Positions 39,688 to 40,104 of a DNA stretch of 58,017 nucleotides are shown here, piece after piece. The translations under genes were made by a program, and so were the position numbers. Below the pieces are notes generated by a model. It saw nothing but the letters and a program-made list of their open reading frames with translations. It did not search any database and was not told where the DNA came from. Within the stretch, counting starts at the first letter, position 1. The number at the start of each line of letters is the position of its first letter. Source of the DNA: a virus; the IMG/VR virus record IMGVR_UViG_3300037089_000557. One strand, 5' to 3'.

Positions 39688-39960
39688 TTATTTCTTCCGA
39701 TAAATTATTCTACATTTGGTCATGTCAAATGTATCAAGCTCAACATCTACCTTGTCACCCTCAACAACCTTGATATTGTTGGTACGCATCTTACCTGAAA
39801 GCTGCCCAATTACTTTCTTGAGATTCCCGTTTTCAAGATCGATGTTGACAGCAAAAAATCCATTGCCGCAAGCTTTATCTATAATACCATTAAATCTAGG
39901 CTTCTCACTTGGCATATCAATAACTCCATTGTCCCAGCGTACTGGGCAATCAAAAATCAT
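39688..39960 (-). CDS. infA: Translation initiation factor IF-1 homologue (S1-like OB fold) with an N-terminal extension
   Basis: ENGNLKKVIGQLSGKMRTNNIKVVEGDKVDVELDTFDMTKCRIIYRK aligns with IF-1 (ENGH.V.A.ISGKMRKNYIRIL.GDKV.VEL.PYDL.KGRIV.R). Confidence 0.65.
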   Translation of the reverse strand: MIFDCPVRWDNGVIDMPSEKPRFNGIIDKACGNGFFAVNIDLENGNLKKVIGQLSGKMRTNNIKVVEGDKVDVELDTFDMTKCRIIYRKK

Positions 39961-40104
39961 CTAAATCTTCCTGTCTCGATTGTCTTGAGAATTGTAGCCT
40001 CTCAGAAGGCTTTTGATTTTCTACTGTCGATTGTCCCAGCGTACTGGGCAATCAAAAATCATCTAAATCTTCCTGTCTCGATTGTCTTGAGAATTGTAGC
40101 CTCT
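39929..40104. repeat. 74 bp perfect direct repeat (copies 39929-40002 and 40031-40104) duplicating the junction between the 40052..40645 gene stop and the IF-1 start
   Basis: Identical copies of TTGTCCCAGCGTACTGGGCAATCAAAAATCATCTAAATCTTCCTGTCTCGATTGTCTTGAGAATTGTAGCCTCT separated by 28 bp. Confidence 0.85.

Follow-up and report, generated by a model that had tools for sequence, protein, structure and literature searches.

The boundary between a 197-aa gene and an initiation factor IF-1 gene in this phage DNA carries two closely spaced copies of its own sequence. These copies probably arose by a very recent tandem-type duplication of the boundary, near-neutral in effect, which took place on top of older, decayed copies of the same junction. 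The window, by which we mean the whole 58,017-nt stretch that was analyzed, belongs to a huge, tRNA-rich phage. Its tRNA genes number 19, one of them an amber suppressor; the Rfam tRNA threshold is reached by 16, including the suppressor. Also encoded in the window are a CCA-adding enzyme, an IMPDH/GMP-reductase-type gene, a NAD kinase domain protein, an intein-containing radical-SAM protein, and a vault-protein-like gene. Contigs that carry relatives of both junction genes measure 392 kb, 446 kb, and 463 kb.

The IF-1 gene and its start codon

Judging from profile, structure, and sequence matches, the 90-aa open reading frame at 39688-39960 is a bona fide bacterial-type IF-1, with a predicted role in initiation. 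Its match to PF01176 (E=3e-16, 59.2 bits, cut-off 30.2) starts at residue 24, and a shorter, 75-aa form of the protein scores 65.2 bits against the TIGR00008 infA equivalog, for which the cut-off is 61.15. Scores of the protein against the eIF-1A and aIF-1A models were far under the cut-offs of those models, and the best PDB matches were bacterial IF-1 chains (e.g., 6c00, E=8e-12). Alignment to E. coli InfA gave 39% identity, with the canonical SGKMR and GD.V.VE motifs kept. Invariant columns in this alignment (90-aa numbering) include G25, N33, F36, S55, G56, M58, and R59, as well as I63, G68, D69, V71, E74, D79, R84, I85, and R88. These results uphold the first-pass annotation, made from the letters alone, which had called the product an IF-1 homologue with an S1-like core.

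The start of the protein is probably annotated 15 codons too far upstream. In a search of 5.8 billion proteins, the closest ~50 homologues were 73-76 aa long and covered 83% of the query, and all of those aligned start with MPSEKPRF, which corresponds to Met16 of the 90-aa frame. The lengths and starts of these homologues place the functional start at Met16 (ATG 39915-39913), so that the conserved 75-aa IF-1 (infA-like) gene, recognized by TIGR00008, PF01176, and its homologues, occupies 39688-39915 on the minus strand. A GGAG Shine-Dalgarno (SD) motif for Met16 lies at 39924-39927, 8 nt upstream of the ATG. The 15-codon in-frame leader of the longer frame, MIFDCPVRWDNGVID (39916-39960, minus strand, opened by ATG1 at 39960-39958), was present in none of the homologues; it is lineage-specific and probably not part of the protein, and it would have been left behind when the 5' end of IF-1 underwent an earlier tandem duplication. 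SD motifs are sparse in this phage, preceding ~10 of 28 called starts, and both ATG1 (SD-like AGGAAG) and Met16 have one. Since they are too sparse to choose between the two codons, the start assignment rests on homology. Gene callers add the spurious 15-residue leader because the relic start codon happens to be in frame.

This assignment changes how the repeat relates to the gene. It had been proposed that the first 11 codons of IF-1 lie within the repeat, which is correct for the longest, 90-aa frame and incorrect for the conserved 75-aa form that starts at Met16. The GGAG and the ATG of that form sit directly outside the repeat. The related idea that the distal copy acts as a decoy of the real start did not hold, as both the conserved start and its GGAG are absent from that copy.

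Anatomy and alleles of the junction repeat

A repeat search and direct comparison of the window with itself revealed a 78-nt direct repeat with one mismatch (39925-40002 and 40027-40104). The perfect part is 75 nt long (39928-40002 and 40030-40104), with a start-to-start distance of 102 nt and 27 unique nt in between, so that the earlier figures of 74 bp and a 28-bp gap were accurate to within 1 base. Besides two tRNA-Ala paralogues, there is no other long direct repeat in the 58-kb window, which rules out chance as its source. Both copies are located at the boundary of the 197-aa gene and IF-1, both of which are on the minus strand, and the repeat thus does duplicate a gene junction, as first described.

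In transcript order, the 3' end of the 197-aa gene leads into the distal copy R2 (75 nt, 40030-40104), followed by the spacer, the IF-1-proximal copy R1 (75 nt, 39928-40002, containing the ATG at 39960), then GGAGTTATTGAT-ATG (39915) and the body of IF-1. R2 includes the final 17 codons of the 197-aa gene, its TGA, and an ATG at 40062 that overlaps the end of that gene. This duplicated relic start opens a 13-codon micro-ORF, MIFDCPVRWDNRQ-TAG (40021-40062, minus strand), whose stop sits in the spacer; the true stop of the neighboring gene and a micro-ORF are therefore both found in the distal copy, as claimed. The 27-nt spacer (40003-40029) reads CGACAGTAGAAAATCAAAAGCCTTCTG in transcript orientation, that is, CGAC followed by a 23-nt segment, F (40003-40025), and it is unique within the window and among all fetched loci. 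A 9-mer, AATCGACAG, is present once just before R2 (40103-40111, minus strand) and again across the R2/spacer join (40024-40032). These two occurrences are 79 nt apart and bound, as microhomology, a 79-nt duplicated unit. The architecture thus comprises two units in succession: the first, of 79 nt, consists of CGAC and the 75-nt repeat, and the second is the same but for 23 additional nt (79 + 23 = 102). A small hairpin, AGCCTCTCAGAAGGCT (39996-40011, plus strand), spans the spacer/R1 join; its stem is 5 bp, and it looks terminator-like on the antisense strand only. It is a weak candidate, as the scan returned 7 such sites against 2.9 expected.

The TAG of the micro-ORF raises the question of read-through by the amber suppressor, a tRNA with anticodon CTA at 16071-16146. 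The ATGs at 40062 and 39960 are 102 nt apart and in frame, and the only stops between them are two TAGs, so that suppression starting from ATG 40062 would yield an extended IF-1 of 124 aa with a tandem N-terminal leader. We regard such a product as extremely improbable. The chance of the two ATGs being in frame is one in three to begin with, and the leader is absent from all homologues. Across the window, 15 of the 70 long ORFs terminate in TAG, the reading frame stays open beyond TAG no farther than beyond TGA or TAA, and we saw no signal of TAG recoding.

To place the repeat in a population context, we retrieved independent contigs by exact look-up of the 197-aa, 90-aa, and 182-aa proteins and judged alleles from the assembled contigs. 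The two-copy state, with an identical 27-nt spacer, was seen in an ENA scaffold (L001) and in a JGI contig from a different sample (L003), the latter departing from the window ~0.9 kb downstream. Two contigs from other samples lack the duplication. One of them, a MEGAHIT contig assembled with k=141 (L002), matches the window at 100% identity over 8.1 kb but is missing exactly 102 nt. The other, L027, also lacks exactly 102 nt and elsewhere differs from the window by a 21-N scaffold gap only. L027 is a short scaffold, in which the assembler could have skipped a loop. We had considered L027 as a diverged strain, which would have made the one-copy state ancestral; this was ruled out, as its differences amount to the gap of Ns. 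L002 and L027 thus present an unduplicated allele on the same genetic background, and both alleles encode an identical 197-aa protein and an identical IF-1.

Short-read assemblers often mishandle tandem repeats, and a 75-nt repeat exceeds the k-mer sizes of some of them, so it is fair to ask whether the duplication was made by an assembler or, alternatively, whether the one-copy contigs are collapsed repeats. The short, N-containing L027 fits such an explanation, as do L028 and L031, both of which end inside the repeat. Against it, the window, L001, and L003 share the same unique 27-nt spacer. Because an assembler cannot invent a spacer, its recurrence in independent assemblies establishes the two-copy allele as genuine, and an artefactual origin of this allele is essentially excluded. 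For the one-copy state, the k of 141 used for L002 is longer than the repeat, which makes collapse unlikely. In addition, the k=31 contig L031 opens with the 3' end of the repeat, of which it includes exactly 30 nt (k-1). A start of this kind marks a graph branch at the repeat boundary and implies that both continuations were in the reads. Residual doubt concerns only the one-copy state. All told, an assembly artefact is quite unlikely, and the one-copy allele is probably real.

The duplication, with its one-copy state judged from contigs, thus probably segregates as an insertion/deletion polymorphism in natural populations. The first-pass annotation had read the perfect identity of the copies as a sign of very recent duplication or of active homogenization; the former finds support in the comparison of alleles, which over 8.1 kb are 100% identical apart from the presence or absence of the 102 nt. 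It had also suggested that the repeat might mark a recombination junction. The repeat does not join DNA of different origins, since the sequences on either side of it are the same in the two alleles and the closest mosaic boundary is the one ~0.9 kb downstream.

Compact junctions in relatives and probable decayed copies in the window

The upstream gene (197 aa, 40052-40645, minus strand) has no assigned function. Its product gave no Pfam or NCBIfam match, forms a protein cluster with a single member, and, in a scan of metagenome contigs, recovered only one distant locus. Its homologues are 180-190 aa long and end in ...NLKERVRCLLKNQDSTE; the protein in the window carries a 19-aa C-terminal tail, NRQRLQFSRQSRQEDLDDF, which would be encoded by decayed junction copies.

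We compared the junction with those of relatives. An overlap between the upstream gene and the IF-1 start was seen in L004, L017, L022, L024, and L033 (~34-37 nt) and in the P0003 and P0055 contigs (11 nt); the two genes abut in L018 and L019 and are 3 nt apart in L013. All of these junctions are compact or overlapping, and none of the relatives examined has a repeat or a micro-ORF at this position. Based on these junctions, the ancestral condition is a compact, overlapping junction.

Two of the relatives' loci bring up the possibility of a mobile element. In L020 and L021, a 1223-nt IS605-type element, encoding a 385-aa TnpB, is inserted ahead of the IF-1 ATG, at a distance of 20 nt. The counterpart of this site in the window is, give or take a few nt, the left breakpoint of the duplication, and L018 and L019 show the empty site. 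These insertions occupy the same intergenic position just upstream of IF-1 and indicate that the junction tolerates insertions. Accordingly, an IS200/IS605-TnpB or homing-endonuclease cassette, or a cut made here by one, could have been followed by repair that left behind the duplication and spacer. However, IS200/IS605 elements insert and excise precisely, without making target duplications, and the 1.2-kb element of L020 and L021 has none. Unlike those loci, the window has no TnpB gene at this position: there is no TnpB/OrfB_IS605 domain in its ten largest ORFs and no such ORF between the two genes. Neither spacer nor repeat has similarity to the element ends of L021, the flank or TAM-like sequence of L019 is absent in the window (ATAAA versus AATCG), and the guide region matches at ~12/18 positions by eye. 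The spacer is also better explained as old junction sequence, and a mobile-element footprint is, in our view, highly improbable. A foreign origin of the repeat unit or spacer was considered as well and set aside: BLAST against the window and all 33 loci returned nothing beyond the junction. Exact scans of viral contigs gave no matches. The single match among genome contigs, of 21 nt, falls in an unrelated, acidic coding repeat with differing flanks and was put down to chance, as ~0.3 such matches are expected by our estimate from the collection size.

The alignments instead suggest that the junction of the window is an array of decayed head-to-tail copies of an ancestral module, for which homology support is moderate. 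We define this module as the end of the upstream gene, an SD, an ATG, and the first IF-1 codons. In transcript order, the putative copies are a dead start (M-P-Y-stop), a copy termed beta, a copy termed gamma that contains ATG1, and the functional Met16 start. The dead start, ATG-CCA-TAT-TGA (40111-40122, minus strand), lies inside the 197-aa gene and would be what remains of the original IF-1 start, which overlapped that gene. At its 3' end, the gene aligns with relatives in a colinear manner through their IF-1 start, GATGCC..TGAA, at a score reached by 0/500 shuffles. Likewise, AGGAAGATTTAGATG of the repeat aligns with the true SD and ATG of relatives, so that the earlier view of the upstream ATG as a copy of the IF-1 start is right in a historical sense, as a relic. 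The geometry of P0055, in which the upstream protein ends in ...ELNAF* with an 11-nt overlap, mirrors the ...DLDDF* and ATG1 of the window.

The sequence between ATG1 and Met16 points in the same direction. The end of these 45 nt, 39931-39916, reads CAATGGAGTTATTGAT (NGVID) and aligns with IF-1 codons 9-13 of relatives. The equivalent block of L013 is identical to IF-1 codons 9-13 of L024 at 16/16 positions, and in L013 it encodes the C terminus of the upstream gene. The match of CAATGGAGTTATTGAT to these codons suggests that the GGAG ribosome-binding site of Met16 descends from duplicated Asn-Gly codons.

We also found a 46-nt ungapped diagonal (40034-39989, i.e., F plus the start of R1) against positions -21 to +24 around the IF-1 ATG of relatives. 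This segment crosses the spacer/repeat boundary, and the spacer would thus be part of one old copy. It is identical to L004 at 31/46 positions and is the top match in 4 of 5 relatives. With shuffles that, like those above, kept mononucleotide composition only, its score was reached in 0/300 trials for L004 and L033 and in 1/300 for L024. An all-diagonal scan gave 4-7 matches versus 0.7-0.9 expected, and global alignments of the modules to L004 had z values of 4.4 to 4.7. A search of the whole window with an nhmmer profile placed 3 of its best 7 matches in the 200-nt junction, at E-values of 0.5-2.5, and TRF reported a 51-nt period at the junction. It is also important to note that the ranking of beta varies with the query relative (it is outside the top 12 with L017 as query) and that an unrelated A-rich site at 49067-49117 outscores the junction modules by chance. 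In addition, AATCGACAGAG aligns weakly (score 9) with IF-1 codons 12-15 of L004, a rival match under which the 23 nt would be an insertion. The one-copy allele had also been modeled as a 59-nt insertion relative to L013, an account that the module model replaced.

Proposed history, consequences, and comparison with known systems

We infer the steps of the junction's history from its anatomy and from the general behavior of short direct repeats. The two perfect 75-nt repeats are the newest duplication in the array; the part duplicated is the putative beta-gamma pair, with the 9-mer AATCGACAG at its boundaries. The duplication may have come about when the short, similar starts of the modules caused replication to slip or misalign, or when they recombined unequally. 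The added 102 nt would then consist of the 79-nt unit and of 23 nt that were kept by the downstream unit only. As these 23 nt look like old junction sequence, the version with them would be the older and the version without them the derived one. Because the units are unequal in length, with 23 extra nt downstream, at least two steps are needed. One possible route is a 102-nt tandem duplication, after which the upstream unit lost 23 nt. Alternatively, an unequal exchange may have taken place between an allele that we call Y, which has the 23 nt, and an allele without them. Loss of the 23 nt upstream would remove a TAG and change the end of the upstream protein from ...ILNRQ to ...ILNRQRLQFSRQSRQEDLDDF, thereby giving it the new 19-aa tail. 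The one-copy allele may in turn derive from recombination between the 75-nt repeats, of which it is exactly the expected product. Allele Y is the predicted ancestor, with one beta-gamma pair, the 23 nt, and an upstream end of ...ILNRQ-TAG; its specific k-mer is ATATTGAATCGACAGTAGAAAATC, and it was not found among the contigs retrieved.

With regard to consequences, the distance from the upstream stop to the IF-1 start is 34 nt in the one-copy allele and 136 nt in the two-copy allele. Among physiological effects, only this shift seems likely; it would loosen any translational coupling and add the 13-codon micro-ORF. Neither gene has lost anything that it requires and both proteins are unchanged, so the polymorphism is most likely near-neutral.

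This near-neutral reading has to be weighed against the idea that the arrangement is a regulatory device, in which the relic start (AGGAAG, ATG, and the 13-codon micro-ORF) serves as a decoy or uORF and gain or loss of the 102 nt changes IF-1 dosage in a manner resembling phase variation. An SD-like motif and an ATG are retained in the upstream copy, both copy-number states coexist on an otherwise identical background, and the duplication, besides widening the gap between the upstream stop and the IF-1 start from 34 to 136 nt, adds a small hairpin. On the other hand, the conserved Met16 start and its GGAG are outside the repeat, relatives have neither micro-ORF nor repeat at this junction, and there are variants with one copy, so that nothing in the comparative data calls for the modulation of IF-1 expression suggested in the first-pass annotation. 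The older copies show decay and no hint of being conserved. The junction matches no known RNA family in Rfam and has no significant structure, and a hairpin, CCCAGUACGCUGGG, loses a base pair in L013 without compensation. We also entertained a genome-wide regulatory motif, a candidate that was dropped because motifs of the GACAATCGA type occur at the junction only, and promoter-like and terminator-like matches were at or near background level. We therefore judge a regulatory function to be unlikely. More elaborate still is a copy-number-variable leader that exerts reversible, heritable control of IF-1 dosage, with one copy giving tight coupling and two copies an uncoupled, micro-ORF-buffered state. 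Under that proposal, which we hold to be very unlikely, a +1 slip at UUU-UGA might fuse the 197-aa protein to IF-1 in the one-copy state.

The junction offers an unusually legible example of how overlapping phage genes may be pulled apart by repeated tandem duplication of their overlap. Decayed copies would have supplied the upstream gene with a new C-terminal tail, and former codons would have become the ribosome-binding site of the downstream gene. The value of the case is mainly corrective and illustrative: the perfect repeat is best seen as a natural indel polymorphism and not as a regulatory invention. It opens no long-standing question, and phage-encoded IF-1 is already documented.

Indeed, huge phages that carry IF1 and IF3 have already been reported (Al-Shayeb et al. 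2020, PMC7162821). Like bacterial IF-1, the protein described here consists of a single S1-like OB domain, here of 75 aa; the tRNA-rich genome that encodes it, with relatives on 392-463 kb contigs, fits the published description of those phages. Compared with bacterial InfA, the phage IF-1 has a small loop insertion near residues 20-30 that is common to the phage clade, and it is otherwise ordinary.

Tandem duplications by slipped-strand events or unequal recombination, and deletions between short direct repeats, are classical phenomena in T4, T7, and E. coli. As in classical slippage duplications, the copies here are head to tail, there is a 9-nt microhomology (AATCGACAG) at a distance of 79 nt, and a reciprocal one-copy allele probably exists. 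Unlike them, the units are unequal, with 23 extra nt in one, and the substrate appears to be an older, decayed tandem array.

The history of the junction might be labeled "overlap resolution." Our literature search returned nothing specific on overlap resolution by duplication, nor on repeat-mediated deletion in T7. The ancestral arrangement resembles overlapping, coupled gene pairs, as the upstream gene of relatives overlaps the IF-1 start by 11-37 nt. L013 provides a parallel for the separation of such an overlap: a duplicated block there forms the C terminus of the upstream gene, with the same ...TE-TGA end, and its downstream copy forms the N terminus of IF-1. In the lineage of the window, the process appears to have been repeated several times, leaving behind nonfunctional relic starts.

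Reading frames at the end of the 197-aa gene

The 197-aa gene directly upstream of IF-1 ends in GAU-UUU-UGA-U (window 40052-40062, minus strand). Hypothetically, tRNA-Phe could re-pair here in the +1 frame, moving from UUU onto the UUU that overlaps it, which would carry translation into the frame of IF-1 and of ATG1, the in-frame ATG upstream of it at 39960. If such a slip at UUU-UGA does occur, the product in the one-copy allele (the window minus 102 nt) would be the 197-aa protein fused to IF-1; in the two-copy allele present in the window, the gain would be limited to 10 codons, followed by TAG.

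The IF-1 neighborhood in the window and its relatives

Relatives differ in the genes that flank IF-1 on either side, with additional 60- to 70-aa genes and ankyrin genes. The two-copy contig L003 matches the window at 100% identity down to 38755 (L003:6105) and at ~81% beyond that; 38755 is a mosaic boundary, ~0.9 kb downstream of IF-1. Also downstream of IF-1 is a 182-aa open reading frame (39102-39650, minus strand) with TTG as its called start. Because its relatives are 165 to 166 aa long, with a weak Macro-domain signal (phrog_335), its true start is probably an internal Met (MTKPSD...).

In related huge-phage contigs, an IS605-type element of 1223 nt sits 20 nt upstream of the IF-1 ATG (L021:1584-2806, and the same element in L020), where it cuts off the C terminus of the upstream gene. 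Insertion took place at ...ACTATGTTG^ATAAATAGG, and empty sites are found in L019 (~1858) and L018. Its 385-aa TnpB carries HTH_OrfB_IS605, OrfB_IS605, and Cas12f1-like TNB domains; the element's RNA had no Rfam match.

When the IF-1 junction module of relative L017 (end of the upstream gene, SD, ATG, and first IF-1 codons) was used as the query, an A-rich stretch within the CCA-adding-enzyme gene (window 49067-49117, plus strand) scored z=6.3. This likeness is due to chance, and it calls for caution about the null distribution when homology of short modules is judged.

tRNA genes and TAG codons

The 58-kb window encodes 19 tRNAs. One is an amber suppressor with anticodon CTA (16071-16146, plus strand; labeled Pyl by ARAGORN), whose gene encodes the 3' CCA; the other 18 lie from 962 to 44830. 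Despite this suppressor, TAG is an ordinary stop within the window. At 9760 (minus strand), a TAG lies between two open stretches in the same frame, one of 125 codons and a second of 337; the latter corresponds to a 336-aa open reading frame (8747-9757, minus strand). This could be a chance adjacency or, because a suppressor tRNA is present, a candidate for read-through.

Other coding features

An acidic coding tandem repeat of the GAAGAGGAGG-type (~7 copies; periods of 9, 12, and 21 nt) lies at 23286-23369 (plus strand). A 623-aa radical-SAM-like protein (23822-25693, plus strand) gave weak, below-cutoff matches to intein splicing and LAGLIDADG domains. An intein is located in the IMPDH-like gene of relatives L013 (L013:1-605) and L014, unlike the IMPDH/GMP reductase of the window (49721-50746), which is intein free. 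Finally, a 913-aa open reading frame (10555-13296, plus strand) matches the shoulder domain of Major Vault Protein (E=2e-27) and also has vault repeat and SPFH/Band 7 domains; such a vault-like protein is of an uncommon kind for a phage.
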